Source: Candidatus Hydrogenedentes bacterium UBA6118
GTDB taxonomy: Bacteria > Hydrogenedentota > Hydrogenedentia > Hydrogenedentales > SLHB01
DNA length: 64,000 nucleotides
Assembly: GCA_002422525.1 (NCBI GenBank)
Contig: DIWA01000015.1
Location: 33,797-97,796, forward strand
Reading direction: 5' to 3'
Part shown: in pieces, positions 22,437 through 54,298 of the stretch
How the letters are laid out: each line of letters starts with the position of its first letter
Position numbering within the stretch: position 1 is the stretch's first letter
The notes under the pieces: model-generated
Database searches by the model: none
Told to the model about the DNA's origin: nothing
Seen by the model: the letters and a program-made list of their open reading frames with translations, nothing else
Translations under genes and position numbers: made by a program

Positions 22437-22803
22437 GCACTGTTCTGAGCAGAACGAACGGAATGATAGCAGAGGATCGGGGCCGAATGCAAATCAGGTC
22501 CGGCGTCGGGCCGGCGTCGGCATCGGTTCGAGGCGGTCGGCGGGCGCTGTTAATAGCCTTGCTATGCCCTGATCGCATGGGCTATGATACGAAGAGCATG
22601 AGGGGCTTCTCGTTCCTGCGGGGATTGTCGGGGCGAGGGGCGCGATCGAGCAGGGTGAGAGAGTGACTCCACGAGACGAGCCGGGAGGAGTCTCCCGCGA
22701 GTGGGGGAGACTATTGACGCGATTGCCGAATAGTCGAGTCCGTCGAAACCGGCGAGGGATGCTTAACTATTTGCCAGCAAGGGGATTGCGTGGGATTCAT
22801 TTG

Positions 22804-22832
22804 TTGACAGCCCCGGTGCCGTGTGATATAAG
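22804..22832 (+). promoter_or_regulatory. near-consensus sigma70 promoter: TTGACA, 17-nt spacer, TATAAG
   Basis: TTGACA at 22804-22809 and TATAAG at 22827-22832, with AT-rich upstream flank GATTCATTTG. It is oriented toward the giant gene about 260 nt downstream. Confidence 0.5.
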
Positions 22833-23033
22833 GCCCTATGCCATTGTATGTTGGTTGGGCCGTCAAAGTCAGCCCGCCGGCGGTCATGGGTCGCAGGCCG
22901 GGGCGGCTTGCGGGCTGTGGGATATCCGTGTGGGGAGTCTGCAAGAGGGCGCGTGTGGCGCCTCCTGGACGACGTCGGGGTGTGCGGGCTCACACGGCAA
23001 GAAGGTAGCCATGCACGCAGAGAAACGGGAAAC

Positions 23034-23073
23034 AACGCTCCTCGGGCATTCACGCCCGGGAGCGTTTTTTGTT
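23034..23073 (+). terminator. intrinsic-terminator-like hairpin plus U-tract in the 5' leader (attenuator or riboswitch expression-platform candidate)
   Basis: AACGCTCCTCGGGC (23034-23047), loop ATTCAC, GCCCGGGAGCGTT (23054-23066), then TTTTTTGTT. The U-tract ends 6 nt before the RBS GGAGGT (23080-23085) and 20 nt before the GTG start. Confidence 0.5.
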
Positions 23074-23093
23074 CCTGCTGGAGGTACCGAACC

Positions 23094-26000
23094 GTGAAGA
23101 CCAAACTCGGCGCTCGAACCTGGTTCATCGGCGCAGCCTTGCTTGCGGGAGCGGCGCTGCTGGTTGCGCCCGCGGCGCGCGCGCAGGACGACGTCCCGAC
23201 GGCGAGCTTCAACATCGAGGACGCCGTCCAGGACGGTCACTCGCTGTTGCCCACGCAGAACTGGACGCCGCTGGTCCGGCTCGAGTTGGCGTGGGACAGC
23301 CAGGACGCGCCCGCGCCGCGGGATCTGACGGGGATGGTGTATTACATCACCGGGGATCCCGTGGATGAGCGGTCGTGGAGTCGGTACGCCAGTCCGGAGA
23401 CGAAGCACCTCTATGAGTTCGCGATCATCCGGGAGGGGCAAGGCCCGGACGACGACGGCTATGGGGTGTTGGGCGACAACGACAGCGTCTGGTATGTCTG
23501 GGACGGCGAAGGCGACCCGGTCGGCGAAGTGACCGACCTGGGCGGGGCCCTGCGGTACGAGATGGACTTCGTGGGGGATGGCACGGAGGACAATCCCGAG
23601 TTCCCGATCCCGAACGGTTCCGCGGACTTTCCCGCGAGCTATTTCCTCGCGGTGCGCACGTCGGCGCTGTGGCACAACGGCATGCACATGAGCGTGCGCA
23701 TTCCGGTGGGCGGGCTCGACTGGAACCCCCGTTTCCCCGACGACTCGGCGACGGTGGACGAGGATCCGTTCGAGCCGGAGACGGCCTACTCGGCCAGTTT
23801 CGGCGCGTACGACGTGACGGGTTCGCTCACCTCCGACCAGAGTTACGTGTACACGAATACGTGGAACTACCCGAACTTCGTGTACACGCCGCAGCCGGAG
23901 TATTCGCGTCCGCGTTGGGACAGCTCGGCGACGGCGCTGCAGATCCTGAACGGCGAGTGGATTCAGCTTCGGCGGCTGTTTGCGATCGAGACGTGGTATG
24001 CGGTGATCGGGCTGAACATGCATTCAAGTTCAGCGTCCGTCATGGAGACGGCGACGCGGAGCGGGTTCGATCCGCTGCTGAATCCCGAGCCGCGCGGCGA
24101 CGTGGGCCGCGTGCGGACGGTCGCGGTGGACGGGGCCTACCCGATCGAGATGAACGTCGTCATGACGGACGTGGGCGGGGATCCGCTCGGGCCTCCGGGA
24201 AACGGCGGGTTCAATCCGCAGACTGGTCTTGAGACCATGACCTACGATGTGCTGTCCGCCGGCGGCGACATCATCGTCGACCGCGCGTACGAGGAGGACC
24301 ACGCGTTCAACGGCGTCTGGCTGTGGCGCGACGGCGGCAACAACGATTTCGACCGGCCAACGCCCGGCGCGAACGGCGCGACGTTCGGCGAGGACACGCC
24401 CGCGTTGCCGATGGGCTGGGCGATCGACGACGACCAGAACATCTTCATGCTGCCGGACGCCGGGCTCGGCGCGTACTGGGAGCATGTGGCGAACCCGCCC
24501 GGCGGCGGGGATCCCTGGTGGCGAATCACGCTGCAGTTCGGCAACAACCGCGGCGGCGCGGGGCGCATGGAGCCGACGCCGAACGGCGATGTGAACGCGC
24601 GGCCAAGCATCCAGTTCCACGATTACTTCATCACGGTGCGCGCGGACAGCGGCTACGCGGATGCGAGCGGCCGGTCGGGCGACGGCACGGGGATCACGTA
24701 CGGCGCCGAGACTCGGATGTACATCGAGCCGCGGTATACGACGCCGAGCAACGACGTGTTCGACGGTTCGATGGACATGGGCGGGCTGCTCGTGACGTCG
24801 CAGTTCCCGCTGGAGTGGTCGGGCGGCTGGCGCGAGCACCCGGCGTTGAGCCCGGTGAACGAGGACACGGGGCTGCGGCAGCAGGAGCCGTGGTGGCACC
24901 AACGCACAATGGATCGCAACAACGCGAAACTGGTGCGCTTCGGCGCCGAGATCCACGACCTCGTGATGACCTACGAGTCGAACAACGCGTTCTCGATGGC
25001 GCAGGGCGTGGACATCGATATCGCGGGCGGCGACAACTTCGGCAACCCGGCGTTCAGCGATCTGCTCGACGACCTCGGCTTTGACTTCTTCTCGATCGCC
25101 AGCTTCGCGCGGTGGATGGATCCGTTCGGGATCCGGTCGGGCGAGTTCATCGACGGCTACCGTACGGGCGTGGTGAACTGGCGGTTCGTGGACTTGGGGA
25201 TCGACGACAGCCAGAACGGCCCGATGCAGAAGCCGTATGAGACGGCGCCGTTCTTCAATCCGCTCGATCTGGCGCCGGCGGGTCCGCGTTCGTTCTTCTA
25301 TCCGAACCCGCCGCAGCAGCCGTCGCTTCCGTCGTATGCGACGTGGCCGCTTGGCGCGGGCGAATTCGCGAACAATCCGGGTATGCAGACGCTGCCTCCG
25401 GGCGAGTTCCCGCGGGAGATCAACTGGCGGCCGGCGGATCTGGGCACGCGGAAGCTGAAACAGCATATCGACGCGGACAGTCGCGCGACGGCGTTGCTGG
25501 GGTTCAACATGGCCGGCGCGAACGACCCGGTGACGAACGAGTTCGCGGCGATCTCGCTCGAGCAGATCACGGTGGCCCTGTGGGGTCCGGACACCAACAA
25601 CGACGGCGTGATGGACTTCTCGCCGGCGGACTTGAAGGCGCTGGACCCGGAGGGTCTGTCCGGCACATCCGGCGTGGCGATCTATGTCGACACGGGGAGC
25701 GGCACGTTCTCGGATCTTGCCGGGGGCGACCAGCCGCTTCCGCTGCGAAGCCTGAAGTGGGGCAGCGCGCCGGAATTCCTCGATGTGACGGGCGACGGCG
25801 AGCCGGATGACCTGAACGGCGACGGCCTGATCACCGGGCTGGACAAGGCGTGGGTGCTGCGGCTGCGTCCGCAGACAGCCTTCCGCGTGCCGGTCGAGGA
25901 CGCGAACATCGCGCCATTTGCGCGTTCGCTGCCGTCGGGCGCGGGCTCGGGCGGCGGCAAGACCGTGCTGGATCTGGGCGAAGAGATCGAGGGCGCGCCG

Positions 26001-28265
26001 TACTGGACGCAGAAGCCGCGCCTGGTGGACCTGGAGACGTATAACGAGGACGCGATCGCGCAGGCTGGACAGGGCATGGGCGACGGGTCGATTCCGGTGA
26101 CTCAGATCCCCGGCGACCCGGACGGCGGCGGCAACGCGGGTGACGACCTGTTCTTCGTAGTTCGGACGTCGGATGCAATCGGGCAGTTCCGGAAGTTCAC
26201 GGCGCTTGTGCCGGCGACGTTGCCGGAGCGGCCTGTACAGGACCGGACGGCGGGGATGCAGTTTGCGCCGTCGAACATCCCGGCCGCGGCCTATGGCAAG
26301 AACCACCCGGAGGAGTCGGGCGGTCCGTCGTTCTTCGAGCACGAGCTGATCGAAGCGAATGTGGCGGTGAAGCTGACGGATTTGACCGGGCAGGGGCAGA
26401 TGCTGTACGCGAACGGCCAGCCGACGGCGGTAATGGGTATTGACGCATCGACGAACCGCGGCGGGGGCGCGATTGTGGCGTCCGGCGAAGCGGGCGTTGG
26501 GGGTCCGGGCCAGTTCACCGCGGCGGGCGCGGGCTTCCCGCCCGGCGGGTTCGTGGGCTACCACCTGATCGATTCGGCGTATGAGTCGTACCTGATCACG
26601 GGGAACACGAACACGCAGTTGACGGTGCTGAGCGGCACGCCGCTTTCGGGGGCGTGGCGGATCGTACGTGATCCGACGTATCTGGAACAGGTTATCGTGG
26701 AGCTGTATCCGGAGGTGGAGGACGTCCAGAACTTCAACCTGCTGGAGCATCTGCTTCCGCTGAATATCAACCAGGATGTCAGCGGTGTGGCGCTGTACCG
26801 CGATAATGACATGCATCCCGACAATCAGAACGGGATCTTTGATCCGGGCGTCGACATCCCGCTGCAACTGGACTACGCGCCGTATATGATCGGCATGCAG
26901 GGCGAACCGCGGCATCAGGTGTTGTTCGTGTTCAGTTCGCCGGGAACGGATGACGTGCCTCTGCAAGGGTTCCCGGCCGGCCTGGCCAACCAGCCGCGGC
27001 GGCGCCAGGTGATCCCGGAGACGTTCGGCGCGACGCTGAGCGACCCGGACCGCGGACCGGACTTCTTCGTGGTGATGCGGGCGGCCTCGAAGGTAGAGGA
27101 GCCGGTGGCGTTCCGGGTCGGCATCGTGTCGTGGGGTCCGAACACGCCGACGGCGCCGGATCCGGACACGTTCCCGCCGCCGCCGGTGGCGACAGTGGGC
27201 GAGTTCGACATCTTCTCGGAGTTCCCGTGGGGCGGGCGCGGCCTCGGCTTCGTCAGCTTCTTTGCGGATATCCGAGACTATGACGCGCGTGACTTCAGCG
27301 GATACAACTGGGTCCGTACGCATCCGAACAAGAACGTGCGGACAAACGTCCTGACCATTGACGAACAGACGGCGCAACCGGGCGACGTTGTGATCACCTC
27401 GGTGTCCCACGACAAGTTGCCGCAGGTGACGCCGGACGGCGGGATCGTGCTGGTGATTCGCGGCAGCGGGTTCGGCACGACGCCGCGGGTGACGCTGAAC
27501 AACACGTTGCTCGAGGTGCAGTCGGCGACGGATACGTCGATCAGCGCGCAGATTCCGGGCGGGTCGACCTTCACGGACATGCTGGTGTTGACGGTTACCA
27601 ACCCGAAGACCGAGAAGACGGGTACGTGGACGGCGATTACCCTTGTTCCGGACGACGGGGGCTTCGGCGACGCGCCGTCGATCGCGTCGGTGTCGCCGAG
27701 CAGCGGCAGCGCGGCCGCGTTCCCCGTGACGATCGTCGGCGCCCGGTTCAGTGATCCGATCGTGCGGTTTGACCAGGCGGAGATGCCGATCGTTGAATGG
27801 ACGCCGACGCGCGTGGTGGTGGCGTTCCCCTCATCGGGTCTGCCCAAGACGGGCCCGTTGGACGTCACCGTGGAGAATGGCGGCTCGGGTCTGTTCGCGA
27901 CGGCGGTGGACGCGTTCACGTATCTGAATATGCCGGGGACCGGGGTGCGGCCGTGCTTCATCGCGACGGCGGCGTACGGTTCGCCGTTGTCCGGGCAGTT
28001 GGACGTGTTCCGCGCATTCCGTGACGATGTGCTGCTGAAGAGCGCGGCGGGCGCGGCGGCGGTCGACCTGTATTACACGGTGAGCCCGGGGTTCGCGGAC
28101 GCGGTTGCGGCGCACCCGGCGCTGGCGATGGCGGTGCGGGCGGCGCTGACGCCGATCGCGTGGGCGCTGAAGTGGCCTGCGTGGGCCGCCGCCGTTGCGG
28201 TCGGTCTGACGTTGTGTGCGGCGGCGGCGTGTTTGCGGCGTCGCCGGGCGCGCGCGGCCGTGTGA
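23094..28265 (+). CDS. giant secreted cell-surface protein (~1,723 aa) with tandem IPT/TIG-like domains, Ca-binding D-x-D-G motifs and C-terminal sorting-signal-like module
   Basis: GTG at 23094 follows GGAGGT by 8 nt. Signal peptide VKTKLGARTWFIGAALLAGAALLVAPAARA-QDD. Ca-loop motifs DTNNDGVMDF and DDLNGDGLITGLD. Two Ig-like IPT/TIG segments (VITSVSHDK...IRGSGFG; IASVSPSSGSAAAFPVTIVGARF). C-terminus CFIATAAYGSPLSGQLDVFRAFRDDVL...DLYYTVSP, then TM AAAVAVGLTLCAAAAC and LRRRRARAAV. Confidence 0.75.
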   Translation: MKTKLGARTWFIGAALLAGAALLVAPAARAQDDVPTASFNIEDAVQDGHSLLPTQNWTPLVRLELAWDSQDAPAPRDLTGMVYYITGDPVDERSWSRYASPETKHLYEFAIIREGQGPDDDGYGVLGDNDSVWYVWDGEGDPVGEVTDLGGALRYEMDFVGDGTEDNPEFPIPNGSADFPASYFLAVRTSALWHNGMHMSVRIPVGGLDWNPRFPDDSATVDEDPFEPETAYSASFGAYDVTGSLTSDQSYVYTNTWNYPNFVYTPQPEYSRPRWDSSATALQILNGEWIQLRRLFAIETWYAVIGLNMHSSSASVMETATRSGFDPLLNPEPRGDVGRVRTVAVDGAYPIEMNVVMTDVGGDPLGPPGNGGFNPQTGLETMTYDVLSAGGDIIVDRAYEEDHAFNGVWLWRDGGNNDFDRPTPGANGATFGEDTPALPMGWAIDDDQNIFMLPDAGLGAYWEHVANPPGGGDPWWRITLQFGNNRGGAGRMEPTPNGDVNARPSIQFHDYFITVRADSGYADASGRSGDGTGITYGAETRMYIEPRYTTPSNDVFDGSMDMGGLLVTSQFPLEWSGGWREHPALSPVNEDTGLRQQEPWWHQRTMDRNNAKLVRFGAEIHDLVMTYESNNAFSMAQGVDIDIAGGDNFGNPAFSDLLDDLGFDFFSIASFARWMDPFGIRSGEFIDGYRTGVVNWRFVDLGIDDSQNGPMQKPYETAPFFNPLDLAPAGPRSFFYPNPPQQPSLPSYATWPLGAGEFANNPGMQTLPPGEFPREINWRPADLGTRKLKQHIDADSRATALLGFNMAGANDPVTNEFAAISLEQITVALWGPDTNNDGVMDFSPADLKALDPEGLSGTSGVAIYVDTGSGTFSDLAGGDQPLPLRSLKWGSAPEFLDVTGDGEPDDLNGDGLITGLDKAWVLRLRPQTAFRVPVEDANIAPFARSLPSGAGSGGGKTVLDLGEEIEGAPYWTQKPRLVDLETYNEDAIAQAGQGMGDGSIPVTQIPGDPDGGGNAGDDLFFVVRTSDAIGQFRKFTALVPATLPERPVQDRTAGMQFAPSNIPAAAYGKNHPEESGGPSFFEHELIEANVAVKLTDLTGQGQMLYANGQPTAVMGIDASTNRGGGAIVASGEAGVGGPGQFTAAGAGFPPGGFVGYHLIDSAYESYLITGNTNTQLTVLSGTPLSGAWRIVRDPTYLEQVIVELYPEVEDVQNFNLLEHLLPLNINQDVSGVALYRDNDMHPDNQNGIFDPGVDIPLQLDYAPYMIGMQGEPRHQVLFVFSSPGTDDVPLQGFPAGLANQPRRRQVIPETFGATLSDPDRGPDFFVVMRAASKVEEPVAFRVGIVSWGPNTPTAPDPDTFPPPPVATVGEFDIFSEFPWGGRGLGFVSFFADIRDYDARDFSGYNWVRTHPNKNVRTNVLTIDEQTAQPGDVVITSVSHDKLPQVTPDGGIVLVIRGSGFGTTPRVTLNNTLLEVQSATDTSISAQIPGGSTFTDMLVLTVTNPKTEKTGTWTAITLVPDDGGFGDAPSIASVSPSSGSAAAFPVTIVGARFSDPIVRFDQAEMPIVEWTPTRVVVAFPSSGLPKTGPLDVTVENGGSGLFATAVDAFTYLNMPGTGVRPCFIATAAYGSPLSGQLDVFRAFRDDVLLKSAAGAAAVDLYYTVSPGFADAVAAHPALAMAVRAALTPIAWALKWPAWAAAVAVGLTLCAAAACLRRRRARAAV
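27954..28262 (+). other. C-terminal conserved module (copy 1) plus TM helix plus Arg-rich tail
   Basis: CFIATAAYGS...FRAFRDDVLL...GAAAVDLYYTVSPGFADAV...WAAAVAVGLTLCAAAACLRRRRARAAV. Confidence 0.6.
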
Positions 28266-28396: not shown

Positions 28397-30772
28397 GTGA
28401 GAACGAGAATCTGGCACGTGATGCTGGTGGGCCTGTGTGGGATCGCCCTGCTGTTCGCAGCGCCCGGGGCCGAGGCGTTCTTCCCCCTGGGCGTGTTCCT
28501 GACGGATCTGGAATACGGGGATCCGTTGCGCATCCCGCTGTGGACGCTGAACTACATGGACACGAACGGGGACCGGGACGTGTCCGGAGCGAACGAGGGC
28601 ATCCCGATCACGTTCCAGGGCGGCGATGACGGATGGACCGTGCAGGAGATGCAGGCCCTGCAGGATGGGTTCGAGGTATGGGAGCGCGTGCCGTCTTCGT
28701 TCCTCGCCTTCCAGTACACCCAGCCGGTGGAGCAGGCGCTCGAGACGTCGGATGACTTGGGGTCGATCGACTTCTTCAACTACGTGGCGAATGACGCGGG
28801 CGGCGCGCTGGTTCCGGCGGGGTTCGCCGGGATCACGTTCATCTCGTATGTGGCCGAGAGCGGTTTCTTCACATACAACGGCCAGGCGATCGAGGTGACG
28901 GGGCCGCAGATCCTGGATGCGGATATCGCGATCTACGGGGATGTGATTCAGACCAGCCGCGACATTGATTTCTCGAATGCCACGGACCAGTTCGATGCGG
29001 GGGTGCCGCTGTCGGGTCTGGTGGTTCAGTTGGCGGGGATGATGGCGGGGCTTGGCCAGAGTCCGATGACCAATACCGATGAAGTGCAGGTGCAGACGGC
29101 GGGCGGCGAGCTGACGCTGCTCGTGGATCCGCTGGTGTACGCGGACCGGGTGTTCTCGGGGAACCTGCAGATGGTGGGCGTGACGCCGAGCATGTACCCG
29201 AATCTGGTGTACACGGACCTCGGGAATGACATCTACCGGCTGGCGTGGGAGGACCTCGCGCCGGACGACATCGCGGGGATCACGTTCCTGTATCCGCGGG
29301 GCGACTTGTCGAACTTCTTCACGGTGCAGCAGGAAGCGCGGTACGCGTCGCGGGCCGGGTTCCCGACGGCGCCGATCGCGGGCGGGTTCATCGAGGCCTG
29401 GTGTGACGTGGACGACAACGCGAACACGCCGCGCGTACCGATGTTCAGCACGCTGACGGGGATGTATGAGAACCAGGCGCAGTTCTCCGGGTTCTTCCGA
29501 CTGTACAACCTGTTCCGGCAGATCGAGTCGCCGACGGCCGTGCCGTTCACCGCGTCGTATACGCTTACGCTGAGCGAGCTGGAGCCGCCGGAGGGGTTCA
29601 CGGCGGACTTCTTCGACTCGCTGCACAACGGGCTGTACGCGGGCGGCGGCGGGTTTGCGTTCTCGACGAACTACCCGCATCAGACGTTCCTGGAAGGCGG
29701 CGAGAATATCATGAGCCGGGACCGGCATGATGAGGGCACGCCGCTGATGTACGATCCGGTGCGCGCGGAAGTGGTGAGCGCGGTGTCGGGGCGCACGCTC
29801 GATCAGATGCTGCCGGGAACGCGGCCGATGTTCGGCGAGTCGGATGCGCAGAACGTGTGTCCGTTGACGCTCGCGGCGCGGCTGGCGAAGACGCAGAACG
29901 GTCCGCGGCTGTTGCGGCAGTTCCGCGACGACGTGTTGCTGACGAATGCGCTGGGCGCGGCCGCGGCGGACGCCTACTACCGGATGGCGCCGACGATGAG
30001 CGCGTTCCTGATGGAGTACCCGATTGCGATGAGGACGGCGCAGGCGATGGCGGAGCTGACGGAATGGGGCATCGCGCATGCGCGGATGCTCGCGGCGCTG
30101 TTGTTGGCGGCGATCGGCGCGGCCTTCGCGATGCGGCGGCGGGTCGTACGCGCGGGCGTCGCGGCGGGATTGATCCTTGCTGCCGCGATCGTGTTCGCGG
30201 GCGGCACGGCGGACGCGCAGGCGATCGACTATTCGATCGAGAAGGCGGTCTCGCTGAGCGATGACATTCTGACCGGTGAAGTGACGTCGCTGCAGTGCCG
30301 GATGAACGACAACGGGCAGATCATCACGGACGTCTCGATCGAGATCGAGGACACGATGAAGGGCGCGTTGAATCGTACGGGGACGCTGCATTTCAGCCAG
30401 ATTGGCGGCGAAGTGAACGGCGTCACGACGTATGTACCGCAGTATCCGCGCTGGCGGCAGGGCGAGGAGGTCGTCGTGCTGATGAAGCGGAACGCGGTGT
30501 TCGGCCACATGGCGGTGTACGGCGTCGGCGGGAAGTTCGAGGTGAAGACGGACGAGGAGACGGGCAAGAAGTACGTCGTGGGTTCGACGGCGCTGGCGAA
30601 GCTGGGCCTGGATAGAGCGCGGCCGACGATAGAGAAGCGTGACGGAGCCGAGGCGTCGGAAGACGGCCCGGCGCAGGGCGTGGACCTGGACGCGTTCAAG
30701 GCGTATCTGGAGTCCGTGGCGGCGGAGCAGGCCGCGAACGAGGAGGCGGCGCGGACGGTGTCCGACGAGTAG
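28397..30772 (+). CDS. large secreted protein (791-aa ORF) with internal copy of the C-terminal sorting-like module, then an in-frame second signal-peptide-like segment and a 190-aa domain
   Basis: GTG at 28397 follows GAGGAG by 7 nt. Signal peptide VRTRIWHVMLVGLCGIALLFAAPGAEA. The module CPLTLAARLAKTQNGPRLLRQFRDDVLL...DAYYRMAP spans aa 488-578 and ends in TM MLAALLLAAIGAAFA plus MRRR. Then VVRAGVAAGLILAAAIVFAGGTADAQA and a soluble domain follow to the stop at 30770-30772. Confidence 0.65.
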   Translation: MRTRIWHVMLVGLCGIALLFAAPGAEAFFPLGVFLTDLEYGDPLRIPLWTLNYMDTNGDRDVSGANEGIPITFQGGDDGWTVQEMQALQDGFEVWERVPSSFLAFQYTQPVEQALETSDDLGSIDFFNYVANDAGGALVPAGFAGITFISYVAESGFFTYNGQAIEVTGPQILDADIAIYGDVIQTSRDIDFSNATDQFDAGVPLSGLVVQLAGMMAGLGQSPMTNTDEVQVQTAGGELTLLVDPLVYADRVFSGNLQMVGVTPSMYPNLVYTDLGNDIYRLAWEDLAPDDIAGITFLYPRGDLSNFFTVQQEARYASRAGFPTAPIAGGFIEAWCDVDDNANTPRVPMFSTLTGMYENQAQFSGFFRLYNLFRQIESPTAVPFTASYTLTLSELEPPEGFTADFFDSLHNGLYAGGGGFAFSTNYPHQTFLEGGENIMSRDRHDEGTPLMYDPVRAEVVSAVSGRTLDQMLPGTRPMFGESDAQNVCPLTLAARLAKTQNGPRLLRQFRDDVLLTNALGAAAADAYYRMAPTMSAFLMEYPIAMRTAQAMAELTEWGIAHARMLAALLLAAIGAAFAMRRRVVRAGVAAGLILAAAIVFAGGTADAQAIDYSIEKAVSLSDDILTGEVTSLQCRMNDNGQIITDVSIEIEDTMKGALNRTGTLHFSQIGGEVNGVTTYVPQYPRWRQGEEVVVLMKRNAVFGHMAVYGVGGKFEVKTDEETGKKYVVGSTALAKLGLDRARPTIEKRDGAEASEDGPAQGVDLDAFKAYLESVAAEQAANEEAARTVSDE
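29858..30142 (+). other. C-terminal conserved module (copy 2), located internally in the 791-aa ORF
   Basis: Same Cys / [FL]RxFRDDVLL / G / YY..AP / hydrophobic helix / RRR order as copy 1. Confidence 0.6.
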
Positions 30773-30823
30773 GGCGGACGTCGGTGCGGCGGCCGAGTCG
30801 AACGAGCTGGTAAGTAGTTGATC

Positions 30824-30866
30824 GCGGCGGTCTCAGGGGTTCTGGGGCCGCCGCGTTGTGTGTGTG
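30824..30866 (+). terminator. GC-rich hairpin followed by a (TG)5 / U-G-rich tract
   Basis: GCGGCGG (30824-30830) pairs with CCGCCGC (30848-30854), then GTTGTGTGTGTG. It lies 50 nt after the stop of the 791-aa ORF. Confidence 0.35.
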
Positions 30867-31121
30867 CGGGGGCGGGGGGAGCGCGGGGTTTTGTAGCGCG
30901 TCGCGGCGAAGGGATACACTGGCAACCGCGCCCGTAACCCGAACGGCGTCAACCGCGTGCGGGCAGGGCGCGTTCCCGAAGCGGGTGATCATCCCGGGGG
31001 CGATTCGGCGCATGCGTGGGTCTGCCGCCGAGCGCGTAGCGCGCGGCCGGGATGGAGTGCGCCGACGCAGGCGACGGGGTGTCGTTTGCGGCGTACCTTG
31101 GCTGGAGTTATCGACGAAATC

Positions 31122-32030
31122 ATGTTGCGCGGTCTGCTTATCCGACAGGCGTTGATCGCGACGGACTTGGTCTTGGCGGGACTGGTCGTCGTGATGGCGT
31201 ACTTTGTGATGGCGCGGATCCTTGGGGATGACGCGGTGACGGCGGCGCCTGTGGAGCGGGTTGAGACCTCGACGGATGTGGGCGTGTTGCGCAAGCCGGC
31301 GGAACGCGGGGACTACGACGGGATCATCGCAGGCAATCTCTACGGTCCGGCGGCGGACGTGACGCGCGAAGATCCGGTGGAGGAGGCGGTGGTCGAGGAG
31401 CAGCCGTTGCGCCCGACGACGCTGCCGCTGAAGCTGTACGGGACGCTCGCGCTGGATCCCGAGGATCCGCTGGCGACGGCGGTGATCGAGGATGTGACGA
31501 CGCGCGTGAAGCAGACGTACTATCTGAACCAGCCGGTGAAGGATGGGTACGTGCTGCGCGAGGTGCACAAGCGCCGGGTCGTGTTGTACAACGAGTCGAC
31601 CGGGGCTCTGGAGGAGCTGGCGCAGGAGGACTTGCAGGTGGCGGCGTCCGAGACGCGGAGCGCGGCGAGTGCGCGGCCCGCGGGACGGAGTCCGGCCGGG
31701 GCGAACCAGGTGGTGGTGAACCGGCTCGACACGCAGCGCGAGCTGGAGTCAATGAACTTCGCGGAGTTCTACGCGCAGGTGAGTCCGCAGCTTGTGCGGG
31801 ACGAGGCGGGGAACGTGAAGGGCATCACGTCGCCGAATATCGACAAGGTGCCGCTGGCGCAGCGGTTCGGGTTCCAGAGCGGGGACGTCGTCAAGAAGAT
31901 CAACGGGGTGCAGATCGACAGCGAACAACGTGCGCTGGAAGTGATCAACCGTTTTCAGAATTCGAGCAGCCACTGGCTGACGATAGAGCGGAATGGCCGA
32001 GAACAGACACTCGTCGTGCGGGTGGAGTGA
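31122..32030 (+). CDS. GspC-like T2SS inner-membrane protein with C-terminal PDZ domain
   Basis: ATG at 31122. N-terminal TM LIATDLVLAGLVVVMAYFVMA. C-terminal PDZ-like segment VKGITSPNIDKVPLAQRFGFQSGDVVKKINGVQIDS. It sits immediately upstream of the secretin gene. Confidence 0.5.
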   Translation: MLRGLLIRQALIATDLVLAGLVVVMAYFVMARILGDDAVTAAPVERVETSTDVGVLRKPAERGDYDGIIAGNLYGPAADVTREDPVEEAVVEEQPLRPTTLPLKLYGTLALDPEDPLATAVIEDVTTRVKQTYYLNQPVKDGYVLREVHKRRVVLYNESTGALEELAQEDLQVAASETRSAASARPAGRSPAGANQVVVNRLDTQRELESMNFAEFYAQVSPQLVRDEAGNVKGITSPNIDKVPLAQRFGFQSGDVVKKINGVQIDSEQRALEVINRFQNSSSHWLTIERNGREQTLVVRVE

Positions 32031-32043
32031 CTGGGGACGTGGA

Positions 32044-34542
32044 ATGCTGAACTATCGAGATCCGTATGCGTGGGCGCGACGCGCGAGGAGGATCGGGCGG
32101 CGGACCGGCGTCGGGCTTGTCGCGGTCGCGACCGCGTTGGCGTTGACGGCGGGATGGGTTGCGTGGGTTCCGGCGGAGCGCGCCTGGGCGCAGGACGACG
32201 AACCGTACTACGAGGAGGAGTACATCGAGCCGGATCCGCAGGCGGAGGTGGACGAGGGGGCGGAGTACGAGGAGTACGTCGAGGAGGAGGAGCCTGTGTT
32301 GCGGCCTGTGGCGCCGCAACGGCCGGCGCCGCCGGCGCGCCCGCAGCCGATCCGGCCTTCGCGCGTACAACCGACCCAGGTGCGGCCTGGGACGACCCCG
32401 GCGGCCCCGGGGGCCGCGGCGGAGCCGAACCCGTACCGACCGAAAGAAGGGGCGGCGGCGACGGAGCCGGTGAGCATCGACTATGAGGGGGTGGAGCTGC
32501 AGGAGATCGTGAAGGCGATCGGCGCGGCGACCGGACGGAACTTTCTGCTCGACCCGCAGATCGGCGCGATCCCCGTGACGTTGATCTCGCACGCTCCGGT
32601 TCCCGCGAACATGCTGCTGGACGTGCTGCAGGCGGTGCTCGTCACGCACGGCTTCACGATGCGCGACACGCTGGACGGGAAGCTGATCAAGATTCGACCG
32701 ATTGACGAGGAGGGCGAGAATGCGCCGCTGGTGGTCGGGTCGACGGAGTCGACGGCGCGGTATGACGATTTCGTGACGCACATCGTGCCGGTGCGGTATG
32801 CGTCGGCCGAGGAGCTTGCGCGCCTGCTGCCGCGGCTCGGATCGCGGACGGCGACGGTGGACGCCTACGGGCCGACGAACACGCTGATCCTGTCGGACAA
32901 TGCGCGGGGCATTGAGAACATGCTGACGTTCCTCGCCGAGATTGACGTGCCCGGGTCGGAAGTGGTCATGGAGACGTTCACGCTGGATTACGCGCGGGCG
33001 GAAGTGGTGGCGGAGCAGATCCGGGAAGTGTTGATGGGCGACGAGGGCGTCGCAGGGGATCGGGCGGCAGCGGTGGCTCGGGCGCGGGCCCCGCAACCGG
33101 TGCGGCCGACGGTGCGGACGCCGGTGAGCGCGCAGGCGCAGCAGACGATCATCGGATCCGAGGAGCCGGTGTTGCAGATCGTGGCGGTGGATCGGCTGAA
33201 CATGCTGATCGTGCGGGCGAACGAGTCGCTGATGCAGCAGGTGCGATCGCTGGTGGATCGGCTGGACGTGCAGACGCCGATCGAGGCGAACAACCTGCAC
33301 GTGTATCCGTTGCTGAACGCGGACGCGGAGTCGGTGGCGGAGAAGCTGAACGCGGTGATCGGGCTGACGCCGCGGGCGGCGTCGGACCAGGGAGGGGGCG
33401 ACGCGCAGGCGGCGATCACCGAGGTGCAGCCGTTCGAGAAGAAGGTGCTGGTCGAGGCGTATCCGGAGACGAAGTCGCTGTTGGTCGTTGCGGCGCCGCA
33501 GGACTACGAGGTGATCAAGGAGCTGATCGCGCAGTTGGATGTGGCGCGACGTCAGGTGCACATCGAAGCGTTGATCATGGAGGTCAACATCCAGGATCGC
33601 TACCAGCTCGGGGTTGAGCTGAGCTCGTTGAGCGCGGAAGACGGATTCGCGCTGAATAACGTGATCTCGTTGGCGAACATCATGGCGAACGGGCCGCTGG
33701 CGGGCGTGGGCGGATCGGACAGTCCGGTGTTGACGACCGGCGTGCTGGACGGCGTGGTGTATCTGCCGGTGGCGGGCGAGGACGGCGCATTGACGCTGCA
33801 GGCGTTCCCAAAGATCCCGCTGTTGCTGACGGCGCTGGACTCAATCACGGACCTGGACGTGTTGTCGCAGCCGTTGCTGACGACGGTGGACAACGAGGAA
33901 GGGAAGGTGACGATCGGTCAGGAGGTGCCGGTGACAACGGGGACGCAGTCCTCGCTGAACCAGAGCGCGTCGAACAGCAGCGTTTACAGCCGGATCGAGC
34001 GCAAGGACGTCGGCATCAAGATGACGGTGCAGCCGCAGATCAGCGAGGGCGACAACATCTTCCTGGAGCTGGAGGTGGAAGTGTCGCAGCCGATCCAGAG
34101 CTCGGTGGGGGCGGATCCGAACATTGTGGGCCCGACGTTCTCGAAGTCGAACATCCAGACGCCGCTGATCGTGCGCGATGGATCGACGGCGGTTGTGGGC
34201 GGTCTGATCAGCGAGAGCATCGATCGGTCGACGCGACAGACGCCGTATTTCGGCGATGTGCCGGTGGTCGGGTGGCTGTTTCGGCGGAAGAACGACCAAC
34301 GGAGCAAGCGCAACCTCGTGGTGTTGGTGACCCCGCACGTGATCAAGGAGGGGGTCGACACGGACCGGATCACGGACTACCGACTGGACGAGTTCGGAGA
34401 GGCGAATGCGGATGTCGTGTTTGAGCAAGGGTTTGTGGAACGGATCCGGCGACGTCACGAGACGCGCACGCAGCACCATCCGAGCGGGTCGCGCGTGGAG
34501 CGTCTGCGCACAAACGAGTTTGATCGAGGGGAACTGCGGTAG
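32044..34542 (+). CDS. gspD: type II secretion system secretin GspD
   Basis: About 830 aa. Signal peptide RRIGRRTGVGLVAVATALALTAGWVAWVPAERAWA, a long Pro/Ala-rich linker, N0-N3 secretin-N domains, and the C-terminal secretin domain (VVGGLISESIDRSTRQTPYFGDVPVVGWLFRRKNDQRSKRNLVVLVTPHVI). Confidence 0.85.
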   Translation: MLNYRDPYAWARRARRIGRRTGVGLVAVATALALTAGWVAWVPAERAWAQDDEPYYEEEYIEPDPQAEVDEGAEYEEYVEEEEPVLRPVAPQRPAPPARPQPIRPSRVQPTQVRPGTTPAAPGAAAEPNPYRPKEGAAATEPVSIDYEGVELQEIVKAIGAATGRNFLLDPQIGAIPVTLISHAPVPANMLLDVLQAVLVTHGFTMRDTLDGKLIKIRPIDEEGENAPLVVGSTESTARYDDFVTHIVPVRYASAEELARLLPRLGSRTATVDAYGPTNTLILSDNARGIENMLTFLAEIDVPGSEVVMETFTLDYARAEVVAEQIREVLMGDEGVAGDRAAAVARARAPQPVRPTVRTPVSAQAQQTIIGSEEPVLQIVAVDRLNMLIVRANESLMQQVRSLVDRLDVQTPIEANNLHVYPLLNADAESVAEKLNAVIGLTPRAASDQGGGDAQAAITEVQPFEKKVLVEAYPETKSLLVVAAPQDYEVIKELIAQLDVARRQVHIEALIMEVNIQDRYQLGVELSSLSAEDGFALNNVISLANIMANGPLAGVGGSDSPVLTTGVLDGVVYLPVAGEDGALTLQAFPKIPLLLTALDSITDLDVLSQPLLTTVDNEEGKVTIGQEVPVTTGTQSSLNQSASNSSVYSRIERKDVGIKMTVQPQISEGDNIFLELEVEVSQPIQSSVGADPNIVGPTFSKSNIQTPLIVRDGSTAVVGGLISESIDRSTRQTPYFGDVPVVGWLFRRKNDQRSKRNLVVLVTPHVIKEGVDTDRITDYRLDEFGEANADVVFEQGFVERIRRRHETRTQHHPSGSRVERLRTNEFDRGELR

Positions 34543-34547
34543 CCGCC

Positions 34548-36302
34548 ATGGTTGAGATGGCCGAGAGCCGGATCTGCGAGATTCTCGTGCGTAACGGCCG
34601 CCTGCATCCGGAGCAGGTGGACGAGGCGCTTGAGCTGCAGAAGATCCGCCCGAAGCGGATCGGCGAGCTGCTGTTGGATCTCGGGTATATCGAAGAGGAT
34701 GAGCTGTTGGAAGCGCTGAGCGAGCAGTTCGGGATCCCGTTCGAGACGGGGATTCGCGAGCAGCTCGACTCGTCGCTGACGACGCGGGCGCCGATCGGGT
34801 TCATCCGCGAGTACCACATGGTGCCGCTGCGCAAGAACGGCTCGGCGTACTACGTGGCGCTGAACGATCCGGCGAACCTGCCGTTGCTGGACGATCTGCG
34901 GCTGCTGTTGGGCGGGCCGGTGACGCCGGTGCTGTGTCGTCGGGAAGATATCCAGGCGGTGATCGACGGGTACTTTGACCAGCAGGGCGAGAACGCGGCG
35001 GACATGCTGGACAGCATCGTGCTGGACGAGCATGACGACGATGAGCCGGGGTCGATCGACCTGATGGACGGCGATCGCGACCTGCTGGACCTGGCGAACG
35101 AAGCGCCGATCATCAAGCTGATCAACCTGCTGATCTCGGGGGCGGTGCGCGAGCGCGCGTCGGACATTCACATCGAGCCGTTCGAGCGCGAGGTGAAGGT
35201 GCGGTATCGCATCGACGGCGTGCTCTACGACAAGTTCAACGTGCCGAAGTCGCAACAGGCGGCGGTGGTGTCGCGCATCAAGATCATGGCGCGGCTGAAC
35301 ATCGCGGAGCATCGGCTTCCGCAGGACGGGCGCATCAAGATCCGGCTGAGCGGGAAGGAGATCGACATTCGCGTGTCGGTGATCCCGATTCAGCACGGCG
35401 AGCGCGTGGTGATGCGTATCCTGGAGAAGGGCAGCTTCCTTTTCGGGCTCGAAGAGCTGGGGATGGCGCGACAGGACTACGAGCTGGTCGACAAGCTGTT
35501 GCGGAGCCCGCACGGGATCATGCTGGTGACGGGCCCGACGGGCTCGGGAAAATCGACGACGCTATACGCCTGTCTGCAGCGGGTGCTGTCGCCGGATATC
35601 AATGTGATCACGGTCGAGGACCCGGTCGAGTATCAGATGTCGGGGGTGGGCCAGATTGAGGTGAAGCCGAAGATCGGGCTGACCTTCGCGCACGCGCTGC
35701 GGAGCATTCTGCGGCAGGACCCCGATGTGATTCTGGTGGGCGAGATTCGCGATCTCGAGACGGCCGACATGGCGGTGCACGCATCGCTGACGGGGCACCT
35801 GGTGTTCTCGACGCTCCACACGAACGACAGCGCGGGGGCGATCACGCGGCTGGTGAACATGGGGATCGAGCCGTTCCTGGTGACGTCGTCGACGATTGCG
35901 ATCATGGCGCAACGGCTTGTGCGGAACATCTGCCCGGACTGCAGGGAAGCGTACGAGCCGGATCTCGAGAGTCTGCTTGAGCTCGGGCTGACCGAGGAGC
36001 AGGCGCGGGGCAAGTCGGCGTATCGGGGGCGGGGCTGCGCGAAGTGCCAGAACCGGGGCTATTACGGCCGGACGGGGATCTTCGAGCTGCTGGTGATGAC
36101 GCCGCGCGTACAGAATCTGGCGTTGCGGGGGGCGGACTCGAACCAGATCAAGCGCGAGGCGAAGAAGTATGGCATGCGCACGCTGCGCGAGGACGGGGCG
36201 GCCAAGGTGATGCGCGGCGTTTCGACCATCGAGGAGGTGTTGCGGGTGACGCGCGACGATATCCTCGAGGAGCTTCCGGAGCCGGGCGATGGCGGTCTAT
36301 GA
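34548..36302 (+). CDS. gspE: T2SS ATPase GspE
   Basis: N-terminal T2SE_N domain. Walker A GPTGSGKSTT, Asp box, Walker B ILVGEIRD. Tetracysteine motif CPDC...CAKC. Confidence 0.9.
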   Translation: MVEMAESRICEILVRNGRLHPEQVDEALELQKIRPKRIGELLLDLGYIEEDELLEALSEQFGIPFETGIREQLDSSLTTRAPIGFIREYHMVPLRKNGSAYYVALNDPANLPLLDDLRLLLGGPVTPVLCRREDIQAVIDGYFDQQGENAADMLDSIVLDEHDDDEPGSIDLMDGDRDLLDLANEAPIIKLINLLISGAVRERASDIHIEPFEREVKVRYRIDGVLYDKFNVPKSQQAAVVSRIKIMARLNIAEHRLPQDGRIKIRLSGKEIDIRVSVIPIQHGERVVMRILEKGSFLFGLEELGMARQDYELVDKLLRSPHGIMLVTGPTGSGKSTTLYACLQRVLSPDINVITVEDPVEYQMSGVGQIEVKPKIGLTFAHALRSILRQDPDVILVGEIRDLETADMAVHASLTGHLVFSTLHTNDSAGAITRLVNMGIEPFLVTSSTIAIMAQRLVRNICPDCREAYEPDLESLLELGLTEEQARGKSAYRGRGCAKCQNRGYYGRTGIFELLVMTPRVQNLALRGADSNQIKREAKKYGMRTLREDGAAKVMRGVSTIEEVLRVTRDDILEELPEPGDGGL

Positions 36303-37539
36303 ATACCAGGCCATAGCGCGGAGCTCGGGCAAGCGGGTGAAGGGCGTGATCGACGCCGACTCGCCTGCGGCGGCGCGACGCAAACTGCGCGAACAGGACA
36401 TGATGCCGACGGCGGTATCGGAGTCGTTCGGCGGCGGCGGGGCGAAGCCGGCGGGGCGTGCGAGGTCGGCGAACGGGTCGGGCAAGGCGCCGGCGGGGGG
36501 ATTCGGGCGCGTTCCGCAGCACGAAGTGTCTGTGATGACGCGGCAGATGGCGGTGTTGTTGCAGGCGGGGATGCCGTTGGTCGAGGCGCTGTCGGCGCTG
36601 ATCGAGCAGACGGCGAACGTGCGGCTGAAGAAGATCATTTACGACATTCGCGACCGGGTGAACACGGGCGCGCGGATGGCGGATGCGCTGGGCGCGCACC
36701 GGCGGGTGTTCTCCGAGTTGTACATCAACATGGTCGGCGCGGGCGAGGCCAGCGGGGCGTTGGAGCAGGTGCTGTTCCGGCTGGCGGACATGCAGGAGCG
36801 ACAGGTGCGGCTGTCGCGGCGGCTCCGCAGCACGATGATGTATCCGGCGTTCATGGCGGTCGTGGGCGTGAGCGTGGTCTCGTTCATGATGGTGGTGATC
36901 GTGCCGAAGATCACGGCGCTCTTCGACAAGCAAGGGCGGGAACTGCCGGCGATCACCGATTTCCTGATCGGCGTGTCTCGGTTTGTCGGGAACTACTGGC
37001 CGGCGTTGGTCCTGGCGGTGGTCGGGTCGTTTGCGTTGTGGCGGATGTGGGTGCGACGTCCGGCGGGGCGCCTGCAGTGGGACCGGCTGAAACTGCGCGC
37101 GCCGCTGTATGGGCCGTTGTACGTGAAGATCATCAGCGGCCGCATCGCGCGGACGCTGGGCACGATGCTGAGCAGCGGGCTGACGATGATGACGGCGCTC
37201 GAAGTGGTGAAGTCCGTCGTAGGCAACGCAGTGATTGAGTCCTCGATGGAGGACGTGAAGGCGAACGTACGGCGCGGCAAGGACCTCGCGGTGCCGCTGC
37301 GGGAGATGGGGGTGTTCCCGTCGATGATGCTGAGCATGATCGAGCTGGGACAACGCAGCGGCGAACTCGAAGGGATGCTGCTCAAGGTGGCGGACACCTA
37401 CGACGACGAAGTGGAGATGAGCGTAGACGGTCTGGTGAGTCTGCTCGAACCGGCGATGATCGTGGTGATGGCGCTGATCGTCGGGTTCCTGGTAATCGCG
37501 ATCCTGCTGCCGATCATGGACATGAGCAGCGGATTCTGA
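36289..37539 (+). CDS. gspF: T2SS inner-membrane platform protein GspF
   Basis: 416 aa with a duplicated GspF/PilC domain (two copies of the conserved periplasm-facing loop) and three TM segments. Its start overlaps the gspE stop. Confidence 0.9.
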   Translation: MAVYEYQAIARSSGKRVKGVIDADSPAAARRKLREQDMMPTAVSESFGGGGAKPAGRARSANGSGKAPAGGFGRVPQHEVSVMTRQMAVLLQAGMPLVEALSALIEQTANVRLKKIIYDIRDRVNTGARMADALGAHRRVFSELYINMVGAGEASGALEQVLFRLADMQERQVRLSRRLRSTMMYPAFMAVVGVSVVSFMMVVIVPKITALFDKQGRELPAITDFLIGVSRFVGNYWPALVLAVVGSFALWRMWVRRPAGRLQWDRLKLRAPLYGPLYVKIISGRIARTLGTMLSSGLTMMTALEVVKSVVGNAVIESSMEDVKANVRRGKDLAVPLREMGVFPSMMLSMIELGQRSGELEGMLLKVADTYDDEVEMSVDGLVSLLEPAMIVVMALIVGFLVIAILLPIMDMSSGF

Positions 37540-37585
37540 CGGCTTGGCCGCGACGCGCGGGCCAAGGGAAAAAGAGAGGTAACGC

Positions 37586-38026
37586 ATGGAGAACCGAAAA
37601 CGGCGAAGCGGATCGGGGATCTCGGGTTTCACCCTGGTCGAGCTGATGGTGGTGATCGTGATCATCGGGCTGCTGGCGGCGTTGGTGGTGCCGAAGTTCG
37701 TGGCCCGCACCGACGATGCCAAGGTGGCCGCGGCGAAGGCGCAGATCCACTCGCTGAAGCAGGCGCTCGAGATGTTCAAGCTGAAGACGGGGAGCTATCC
37801 GTCGACCAGCGAGGGGCTCGAAGCGTTGGTCAATAACGAGTATGAGAACTTCCTCGAGCAGGACGTGATCCCGCTCGACCCCTGGAACAACCCCTATGTG
37901 TATGCGTCGCCGGGCAGCGAGGGGCACGACTTCGAGATCATCTCCTATGGCGAGGACGGGGCGCCGGGCGGTACGGACTTCGCGGCGGACATCGTGAGCT
38001 ACAACCTGCAGGGCACTCGGAACTGA
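37586..38026 (+). CDS. gspG: T2SS major pseudopilin GspG
   Basis: Prepilin leader plus N-methylation site GFTLVELMVVIVIIGLLAALVVP. The GspG core (AKAQIHSLKQALEMFKLKTGSYP) has the conserved pseudopilin C-terminal residues. Confidence 0.9.
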   Translation: MENRKRRSGSGISGFTLVELMVVIVIIGLLAALVVPKFVARTDDAKVAAAKAQIHSLKQALEMFKLKTGSYPSTSEGLEALVNNEYENFLEQDVIPLDPWNNPYVYASPGSEGHDFEIISYGEDGAPGGTDFAADIVSYNLQGTRN

Positions 38027-38045
38027 CGACCGCGCGAGGCGGGCC

Positions 38046-38846
38046 ATGGACGATGCAGTGACAGACAGACGCGGGCGGGCCGGCGGCTTCACGCTGATTG
38101 AGCTGGGGCTCGTCATGTTCATCATCACGATCGTGCTGGCGCTGGCGCTGCCTCGTTTCGTGCCGATGATCGCGTTCAGCGAGCTGGAAGGGTCCGCGCG
38201 ACGGATCGCGGGGTACGGGCGGTCGCTGGTGGCGCACTGCGCGATGGTGCGCGAGCCGGTGACGTTCCGGATCGACATGGACGCCGGCGAGTACTGGTCG
38301 CTCCGGTGGCTGCCCGACGAAGACGAGGGTCTGTTCGAGGACGGCGACCTGTTCGACGAGGGCGCGTTCGCGACGCGGTCGGGATCGGAGCGCGACGCCT
38401 ACAACCCGAACCAGTATATGGACGCGGCCCAGGAGGACGCGTTGCGTGGGGAAGAGCTGGCGGTGCAGTTCGAGCGGTTCGTGCGGATGGCGACGACGGC
38501 GAAGGCGCGGAACGTGCCGGGCGACGGGCTGTTCGACGACCTGGATCCGCTGTTCGAGAAGGAATTCAGCCTGGACACCGATGAGGACGAGTCGCTTGAG
38601 GAGCTGAAGACGGCCCTGCTTGAGCGGGGCACGCTGCCGGAGGGGGTGCGGTTCGCGGCGATCGAGGTCGGGCCGCGGGTGTACGCGAGCGGTCTGGTGG
38701 AGATCGACGTGACGCCGCTGGGGCTGACGGAGGCGATCGAGTTCACGCTGGAGAACGAGCGGGGCGATCGGTACGTCGTAGCGTGGGACGCGATTACGGG
38801 CGGGGCCCGAATCGCGGAGGCGCCTCGGGCGGAGACGGGGTCATGA
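38046..38846 (+). CDS. minor pseudopilin (GspH-like)
   Basis: Prepilin-type N-terminus GGFTLIELGLVMFIITIVLALALP. 266 aa, longer than the canonical GspH. Confidence 0.55.
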   Translation: MDDAVTDRRGRAGGFTLIELGLVMFIITIVLALALPRFVPMIAFSELEGSARRIAGYGRSLVAHCAMVREPVTFRIDMDAGEYWSLRWLPDEDEGLFEDGDLFDEGAFATRSGSERDAYNPNQYMDAAQEDALRGEELAVQFERFVRMATTAKARNVPGDGLFDDLDPLFEKEFSLDTDEDESLEELKTALLERGTLPEGVRFAAIEVGPRVYASGLVEIDVTPLGLTEAIEFTLENERGDRYVVAWDAITGGARIAEAPRAETGS

Positions 38847-42805: not shown

Positions 42806-42833
42806 CGGGCGACAGAGACCGGAGTACGCAAGG

Positions 42834-54277: not shown

Positions 54278-54298
54278 GAGTTGTGGTCTCCGTGGAGC

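Follow-up and report, generated by a model that had tools for sequence, protein, structure and literature searches.

In the present study, we analysed a stretch of 64,000 nucleotides of contig DIWA01000015.1 from Candidatus Hydrogenedentes bacterium UBA6118 (hereafter, the window) and examined a gene on its plus strand that encodes a very large protein with a Sec-type signal peptide (the giant protein). The gene is followed by that of a smaller protein (the partner) and then by an operon for a type II secretion system (T2SS). The giant gene is a real member of a conserved protein family, far beyond chance, and judging from the homologues collected the family occurs almost only in the Hydrogenedentota. 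By the tests run, the giant protein is outside the known adhesin, S-layer, cohesin, dockerin, sialidase, and MYXO-CTERM families. The features of the locus are listed below in their order on the window.

22760..23093 (+): promoter and 5' leader, comprising an upstream box, a sigma-70-like promoter, a leader of ~254 nt, a hairpin, and a ribosome-binding site (RBS)
23094..28265 (+): giant protein gene, encoding 1723 aa from a GTG start; the coordinates include the stop codon
23094..23183 (+): Sec-type signal peptide, aa 1-30, predicted by inspection to be cleaved after ARA
23196..23738 (+): module M1, aa ~35-215, beta-sandwich, with AlphaFold2 (AF2) pLDDT mostly 85-93
24126..24743 (+): module M2, aa ~345-550, with the most conserved motifs of the protein
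25491..25898 (+): module M3, first part, aa ~800-935, holding a double loop (aa 897-920, nt 25782-25853)
25899..26126 (+): variable low-complexity insertion in M3, aa 936-1011, where the alignments of homologues break
26127..26243 (+): probable last strands of M3, aa ~1012-1050, GDDLFFVVRTS...FRKFTALVP
26661..27143 (+): module M4, aa ~1190-1350, mostly with an AF2 pLDDT of ~90 or more
27387..27920 (+): two IPT/TIG domains, aa ~1432-1515 and 1528-1609, Pfam PF01833
27954..28262 (+): CFI-box-CTERM domain (aa 1621-1688, beginning at C1621), hydrophobic helix, and Arg-rich tail RRRRARAAV
28397..30772 (+): partner gene, 791 aa, directly downstream of the giant gene
30823..30855 (+): terminator-like hairpin (15-bp stem) that separates the partner gene from gspC
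30957..43343 (+): T2SS operon, gspC-D-E-F-G, three N_methyl pseudopilin genes, and gspK-L-M (Pfam)

The giant protein: gene, domains, and core

As the GC content of the window is about 67%, the mechanical lists of open reading frames (ORFs) were rich in spurious frames; thus, genes were chosen by the GC content at each codon position. The mechanical ORF of the giant gene spans 22848-28265 (+), and its values at the first, second, and third positions (0.64/0.50/0.86) match those of other real genes in the window. We took GTG at 23094 as the start codon because three observations agree: the spacing of the RBS (GGAGG at 23080-23084, 9 nt 5' of the GTG), the JGI gene call P0001, which has an identical 1723-aa product, and the start of the homologue P0002, which is 82% identical and has the same N-terminus, MKTKLGAR. 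The longer ORF that begins with ATG at 22848 was ruled out by the starts of homologues, the JGI gene call, and the position of the RBS. By inspection, the signal peptide, MKTKLGARTWFIGAALLAGAALLVAPAARA followed by QDD, combines a basic n-region with a hydrophobic core and ends in an A-x-A site, and the N-terminus is conserved among homologues. The mature part has a pI of 4.2 and is free of Cys up to C1621, the first one in the protein. The gene start and the signal peptide bear out the preliminary description, made from the sequence alone, of a secreted protein of about 1,723 residues.

Two kinds of domains were recognised, both near the C-terminus. The Pfam TIG model (PF01833) matched two stretches with 46.6 bits (cut-off, 20.9; E=3.5e-12), as had been expected from the tandem IPT/TIG segments noticed before; the best stretch is aa 1528-1609, and the limits of the first are approximate. 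A match to the NCBIfam model CoaZ_rpt_PGGG overlaps this region. The two TIG copies showed no similarity to each other by BLASTP, and the Pfam model alone recognises both. The stretch first noticed as a sorting-like tail proved to be a curated domain, CFI-box-CTERM (NCBIfam NF041770), which matched with 80.5 bits (cut-off, 40) over model positions 1-68 of 69. A search with the 112-residue tail matched mostly short fragments; among the matches, the CFI-box also terminates Flg_new_2 and YD-repeat proteins, and it is found in at least one other phylum (an Acidobacteria-family record). In the literature searched, we found nothing specific on the CFI-box, either by its family name or by its motif CFIATAAYG, or on secretion in the Hydrogenedentota.

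No HExxH, HxxEH, GxSxG, or GDSL motif was found in the giant protein, in agreement with the earlier reading, which had seen neither HExxH nor GxSxG. Domain scans with Pfam and NCBIfam and a search of PDB sequences gave no known enzyme domain, and the same three sources gave no match over aa 35-1425; in the preliminary description, most of aa 60 to 1,400 had likewise shown no nameable motif. The PDB sequence search gave no match for the whole protein, Pfam and NCBIfam gave none to S-layer or S-layer homology (SLH) domains, and Pfam gave none to carbohydrate-binding modules (CBM) or sialidases. A lenient Pfam scan (E<=0.1) of 13 homologues of unit A (aa 30-945) also revealed no recurrent family.

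In the case of the EF-hand/dockerin-like loops of the preliminary description, both motifs were found, but the label rests on motifs without a Pfam match: the Dockerin and EF-hand models did not match the window protein, and Dockerin_1 gave a sub-threshold match (E 0.003) in one of 13 homologues scanned. DTNNDG at aa 833 is present in a subset of homologues that form one clade. DLNGDGLITGLD at aa 906 fits the 12-residue loop D-x-[DN]-x-[DG]-...-[DE] and is a predicted Ca loop. It lies in the double loop DxxGDGxxDDxxGDGxxxxxDkAW (aa 897-920), the D, G, and W residues of which (D897, G900, D906, G911, D917, and W920) are invariant across 30 homologues.

Structural models were built by AF2 with the family alignments for unit A and for unit B (aa 1005-1440). 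Both are all-beta (pLDDT 70.5 and pTM 0.78 for unit A; 75.2 and 0.76 for unit B). Their fold matches, with novelty assessed against the PDB only, were chains of Bacteroidetes glycoside hydrolase family 33 (GH33) sialidases, which were the best, as well as cohesins, TTHA1873, AvmM, and Ig-like domains of Gram-positive adhesins. The similarity of the core to the GH33 chains and to the cohesin modules of cellulosomal scaffoldins is weak and generic (5-13% identity) and has no Pfam counterpart. The aligned lengths and the low TM-scores suggest that the sialidase match covers only the non-catalytic N-terminal beta-sandwich. Foldseek against the PDB was consistent with this result, giving the same sialidase entries with TM-scores of 0.22 or less; its matches to spike and integrin chains were of low probability and were judged spurious. 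The six-bladed beta-propeller that forms the catalytic domain of GH33 sialidases was not found, and neither the cohesin sequence model (PF00963) nor a strong cohesin fold match was obtained. The fold searches of the models against the PDB revealed no known enzyme domain, in favour of the preliminary description, in which no catalytic signatures had been seen.

Profile-profile comparison of sub-blocks (hhalign) revealed four related modules, M1 to M4, in the core. Compared with M4, the probability was 74% for M1 (E 2.8e-5), 92% for M2 (E 5.7e-7), and 94% for M3 (E 1.2e-7). The elements come in the same order: a hydrophobic strand, an xFNP/L turn, SGVxLYxD with an acidic loop of the D-x-N-x-N-G-x-F-D type, DxPLxL, a W/V-rich strand, and D(Y/F)FVVxRxS. 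M2 contains the motifs PGNGGFNP, PPGGGDPWW, and DYFxxxRxDSGYxDxS...IEPR, with invariant columns. We assigned aa ~1012-1050 to M3 from motifs, as the position of this segment matches those of DYFITVRADS in M2 and DFFVVMRAAS in M4. Because this probable last element of M3 comes after the low-complexity stretch, the latter would be an insertion inside the module. At this stretch the BLAST and phmmer alignments of many homologues are interrupted, and P0017 is longer by about 280 residues.

The conserved cassette and its distribution

Only 30 relatives emerged from a word-indexed search that covered 5.8 billion proteins, and those with names are all proteins of metagenome-assembled genomes (MAGs) of Candidatus Hydrogenedentota. 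With a HMMER profile, 1.84 billion cluster representatives gave 141 matches, essentially all of them from the Hydrogenedentota; 88 were at E<=1e-30, and many were fragments. The few distant full-length matches that were scanned are giant TIG- or PKD-bearing proteins without enzyme domains. The unit-A profile found 131 relatives in GTDB species-representative genomes, nearly all labelled Hydrogenedentota, from which 77 loci were retained and queried by tblastn with the proteins of the window. All homologues align colinearly over aa 35-1425, except for the insertion in M3. The family is conserved and has no established function, which is compatible with the preliminary description.

Some contigs, including L005, L008, L012, L016, L017, L018, L024, L025, and others, are labelled as Nitrospirales, Nitrospiraceae, or, in one case, Bathyarchaeia. 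As their GspE sequences are 72-76% identical to that of the window and the synteny of the cassette is unchanged, they are probably mislabelled or mis-binned Hydrogenedentota.

Other homologues (P0018-P0027, P0012, P0028, and P0031-P0036) show lineage-specific elaborations. Some have an N-terminal reprolysin-like metalloprotease with a beta-helix (DUF1565), others Kelch propellers or PKD domains, and in some the whole core is duplicated in tandem, giving 3,400-4,400 aa. The reprolysin and Kelch forms end with 'FFGC...' in place of the CFI-box. P0005 (locus L004), from the JGI sample that the window matches (3300002498), resembles a paralogue (44-54% identical) that has neither TIG nor CFI-box; its C-terminus consists of Flg_new_2 repeats and a different transmembrane (TM) anchor, and neither a partner gene nor a T2SS adjoins it.

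Of 54 informative loci, 51 have the partner gene downstream of the giant gene; in two of the three loci without it, the giant gene is a second copy and the genome has a complete cassette elsewhere. The partner begins with a signal peptide and a matrixin-like domain, followed by a CFI-box-like segment in the middle of the protein (aa 504-550), a TM helix, and RRR; after these come a second signal-like segment and a conserved domain of ~190 aa. The mature N-terminus, AFFPxGGF, is conserved across the partner family. A profile of the partner gave nothing significant against the PDB (MMP-1 at E=1), and the metzincin assignment is based on motifs and on Pfam matches in homologues: Peptidase_M10 matched 8 of 20 homologues (best E 1.2e-5) and did not match the window copy. 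The zinc site HExxHxxGxxH is kept in 9 of 20 aligned homologues; L038 and L005 are examples of loci whose partner has an intact HExxH. The methionine of the Met-turn (M266) is kept in all aligned homologues, and the matrixin-like segment 'LAPDDIxGIxxLYPR' in all but one. The family is described here as matrixin-like. In the window the Met-turn is retained (GVTPSMYP, LAPDDIAGITFLYPRG); the zinc site reads VVQLAGMMAGLGQSP, and all zinc ligands are lost. Because of this site, the window partner is predicted to be a pseudo-protease; some homologues in other genomes are apparently active.

The mid-protein segment (window 29858-30772; also seen in L002 and L025) suggests internal cleavage or a membrane hairpin. 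The partner matched midcut-by-XrtH (NF033207) weakly (E 0.0016; 18.5 bits, below the cut-off of 45). It is like the proteins of that family in having a sorting-type segment in mid-protein, whereas the segment is CFI-box-like rather than PEP-CTERM-like, and no exosortase was found nearby.

In six loci (L003, L025, L058, L065, L073, and L077), the giant and partner genes are fused in frame. The fused ORFs, at 9995-17137 in L003 and 4217-19699 in L025, reach up to 5,161 codons. At the junction in L003 and L025, the CFI-box, TM helix, and Arg residues are followed by a signal peptide and then by AFFP....

The T2SS operon starts 2.7 kb downstream of the giant gene, and one of its three N_methyl pseudopilin genes matches T2SSJ. 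The order giant gene, partner gene, gspC/gspD was found in 29 of the 43 informative loci, so that orthologues next to T2SS clusters, the subject of a check proposed in the preliminary description, do occur. The giant protein has the attributes expected of T2SS substrates, namely a Sec or Tat signal peptide (here, by inspection) and a T2SS in the genome.

Upstream of the giant gene is a near-consensus promoter, consisting of TTGACA at 22804, a 17-nt spacer, and the extended -10 element TGTGATATAAG; a promoter-like motif was found upstream of the giant gene in 24 loci. It is preceded by a conserved box, TGCTTAACTATTTG, at 22760. The box motif TGCTTAACYWTYTG occurs once in the window and is present in 8 loci, and wherever positions were compared the box is ~44 nt before the -35 hexamer. 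The leader ends with a 12-bp GC-rich hairpin (~23034-23066) and six T/U residues, about 10 nt before the RBS. Its folding is more stable than that of shuffled sequences (z of the minimum free energy, -2.95). The leader DNA is 93% identical to that of L083 while the proteins are 82% identical, and several of the differences sit in the loop and the bulge of the hairpin. By nhmmer, the leader was found directly 5' of the giant gene in several distant loci. As judged from single-sequence folds and inspection of alignments, about 9-11 of 22 loci also have a hairpin and a U-run before the RBS, with stems that differ in sequence. RNAalifold recovered only a CUCC/GGAG pairing in this hairpin, for the loci misalign and the bulges are differently placed. 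No Rfam family matches the leader, which may be an attenuator or an mRNA-stabilising leader.

The partner gene, the four-fold repeat, the in-frame fusions, and the conserved promoter and leader all go beyond the preliminary description.

Possible role of the giant protein

We lean, by a small margin of belief, towards the reading that the giant protein is a non-enzymatic surface coat or adhesin, which would be exported by the adjacent T2SS and held by its CFI-box tail. We infer its surface location, T2SS export, tail processing, Ca binding, and coat or adhesin role from the features described above. The adhesin or S-layer-associated protein proposed in the preliminary description is still the best reading; the in silico data do not separate an adhesin from an S-layer protein.

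The protein would be made with its Sec signal peptide and fold in the periplasm as a large all-beta body, in which the four paralogous beta-sandwich modules with acidic Ca-loop-like turns, the connecting domains, and the two TIG domains might be stabilised by Ca. The CFI-box, the TM helix, and the Arg tail may hold it at first in the inner membrane. The tail would then be processed at the CFI-box by a putative sorting enzyme, by analogy with MYXO-CTERM and GlyGly-CTERM, and the T2SS encoded downstream would move the protein across the outer membrane while its attachment to the surface is kept. A coat or adhesive layer could be formed together with the co-encoded matrixin-like partner. In a broader form, which we consider unlikely as a whole, the giant protein, the partner, and the C-terminal domain of the partner would be one phylum-wide surface system, made as a polyprotein in some genomes, cut at CFI boxes by a putative sorting enzyme, and used by the T2SS to build the principal surface layer of the Hydrogenedentota; the ectodomains of such a polyprotein may be separated by hairpins of CFI-box, TM helix, Arg cluster, and signal-like helix.

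The nearest parallels are found among sorted surface proteins. In MYXO-CTERM proteins, an invariant Cys motif is followed by a TM helix and an Arg-rich tail. An intramembrane protease cleaves these proteins, and their display on the surface depends on the T2SS; an example is TraA of Myxococcus xanthus, which is sorted by the myxosortase MrtX and the T2SS, and GlyGly-CTERM/rhombosortase is another tripartite C-terminal sorting system (PMC11980579). The giant protein is similar in its Sec signal peptide, the tag that starts with an invariant Cys motif, the TM helix, the Arg-rich cytoplasmic tail, the large adhesin-like ectodomain, the T2SS link, and the restriction to one phylum. However, the tag is CFI-box-CTERM, with ~65 conserved residues from the Cys to the TM helix, the window showed no CPBP protease, and the T2SS link is that of genomic adjacency alone. 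The tail did not qualify as a MYXO-CTERM or tripartite tag, and NCBIfam gave no MYXO-CTERM model for the giant protein.

S-layer proteins with a dedicated adjacent T2SS have been described in Aeromonas and for Slr4 (PMC7821379). VapA/AhsA of Aeromonas and Slr4 of Pseudoalteromonas tunicata are, like the giant protein, Sec-dependent, acidic, Cys-free, and large, with genes beside the T2SS in a conserved arrangement. In contrast to the giant protein, they have no C-terminal TM sorting domain and no protease-like partner, and no similarity in sequence or fold to it was detected.

Strong promoters with long structured leaders have been described for highly expressed S-layer genes. The giant gene has such S-layer-like traits, namely an acidic, Cys-free product, a strong promoter, and a long leader, and its product might, by analogy, form a lattice. 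SslE/YghJ of Escherichia coli is a surface-associated protein of ~1,500 aa. Its gene lies immediately 5' of gspC-M, and the T2SS encoded there secretes it; it is an N-terminal lipoprotein with its own M60-like protease domain. The giant protein is similar to SslE in size, in its position before gspC, and in its association with a metalloprotease, but it has no protease domain and is C-terminally anchored, and the metzincin-like module is separate and, in this genome, degenerate. By analogy, the giant protein functionally resembles both the C-terminally sorted, T2SS-dependent surface proteins and the T2SS-dependent S-layer proteins.

Several observations weigh against a T2SS-exported coat or adhesin. 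No T2SS follows the cassette in 14 of the 43 informative loci, and the cassette and the T2SS are probably separate transcription units, because the terminator-like hairpin stands between the partner gene and gspC. A Pfam scan of the window's 47 gene-like ORFs found no homologue of a CPBP protease, rhombosortase, or exosortase. The CFI-box is a domain of 69 positions, and those ~65 conserved residues lie between its Cys and the TM helix. The AF2 confidence is low at aa ~620-790. Conservation is high for a coat or an adhesin (32-48% identity across the phylum, with many invariant D, E, W, G, and P residues) and could instead reflect an enzyme or a component of a machine.

An alternative is a giant protein that stays anchored in the inner membrane and acts in the periplasm, not as cargo but as a structural accessory of the T2SS or as an envelope-spanning scaffold. 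At face value, the C-terminal TM helix with the Arg-rich tail is a stop-transfer anchor, the window ORFs scanned contain no sorting enzyme, the giant-partner-gspC order is fixed in the 29 loci, and in the fusions the CFI-box and TM helix followed by a signal-like helix would make a simple membrane hairpin between two periplasmic domains. We nevertheless consider this rather improbable, as a TIG-bearing ectodomain of this size (1,600 residues) is characteristic of surface proteins, and the N-terminal metalloprotease, beta-helix, Kelch, and PKD additions of homologues are typical of exoproteins. Furthermore, paralogues such as P0005 have other C-terminal anchors and adjoin neither partner nor T2SS, the hairpin before gspC suggests separate transcription, and in other phyla the T2SS operons are not known to require a component of this kind.

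Another reading, in which the conserved core is an enzyme with an undescribed fold, such as a hydrolase of polysaccharides or proteins that is displayed on the cell and has the invariant acidic residues as its active site, would account for the unusually strong conservation with its many invariant D and E residues and the motifs PGNGGFNP, PPGGGDPWW, IEPR, and EPWWPxRT; glycoside hydrolase genes are also nearby in the window, and the best fold matches are sialidase entries. Yet no catalytic family was found by Pfam, NCBIfam, or the PDB sequence search, many of the invariant acidic residues are in DxDGD-type loops, where Ca ligands are expected, and the separate protease domains added in some homologues fit a scaffold better than an enzyme, so that we regard this as very unlikely. 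We give similarly little credence to a scaffoldin-like display platform, in which cohesin-like modules and dockerin-like loops would recruit secreted proteins, including the partner, into a surface complex. The conserved dockerin-like double loop, the weak Dockerin_1 match of one homologue, the constant pairing and occasional fusion with the partner, and the lineage-specific N-terminal enzyme or binding domains would suit such a platform, but Pfam gave no cohesin or dockerin match for the giant protein, and no dockerin-bearing enzymes were identified in the window.

To our knowledge, the Hydrogenedentota have almost no cultured members, and no description of their cell envelope was found in the literature searched. 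The cassette offers a concrete candidate both for the main surface structure of the phylum and for the cargo to which its T2SS is dedicated. Four elements are new here: a core of ~1,400 residues based on a module that occurs four times, a conserved cassette in which the matrixin-like partner is often degenerate, fusions that resemble polyproteins, and the genomic coupling of the CFI-box to a T2SS. This coupling, in a conserved arrangement with natural fusions, turns CFI-box processing and T2SS use into directly testable questions. If the broader form, the phylum-wide surface system considered unlikely above, is true, CFI-box sorting would be a new counterpart of the exosortase, rhombosortase, and myxosortase pathways, and a strong conserved promoter with a leader RNA resembling an attenuator would drive its main cargo. 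The ~1,400 residues without a domain model could seed new Pfam families. The practical value is moderate and consists of improved annotation and of a target for surface proteomics or cryo-electron tomography of enrichments.

Other genes of the window

A gene for tRNA-Arg (ACG) at 22360-22436 (-) lies between the leader of the giant gene and an upstream gene at 21065-22324 (+). The 419-aa product of the latter has hydrophobic segments close to both ends, with a long coiled-coil-like region in between, and it gave a sub-threshold match to Wzz (chain-length determinant; E 0.018). This gene is not syntenic with the giant family, as tblastn found no match to it in any of the loci.

The region is flanked, at 13672-19595 and 43772-46264, by genes related to glycoside hydrolases and an esterase: one with a GH65-like C-terminal domain and one each resembling genes for a GH78 rhamnosidase, an acetyl-xylan esterase, and a GH42 enzyme. 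The cluster at 52826-57423 (-) encodes a NiFe hydrogenase large subunit, an Oxidored_q6 small subunit, a 2Fe-2S/4Fe-4S protein, and a Nuo51-like flavoprotein, and looks like a bidirectional NAD(P)-linked hydrogenase.

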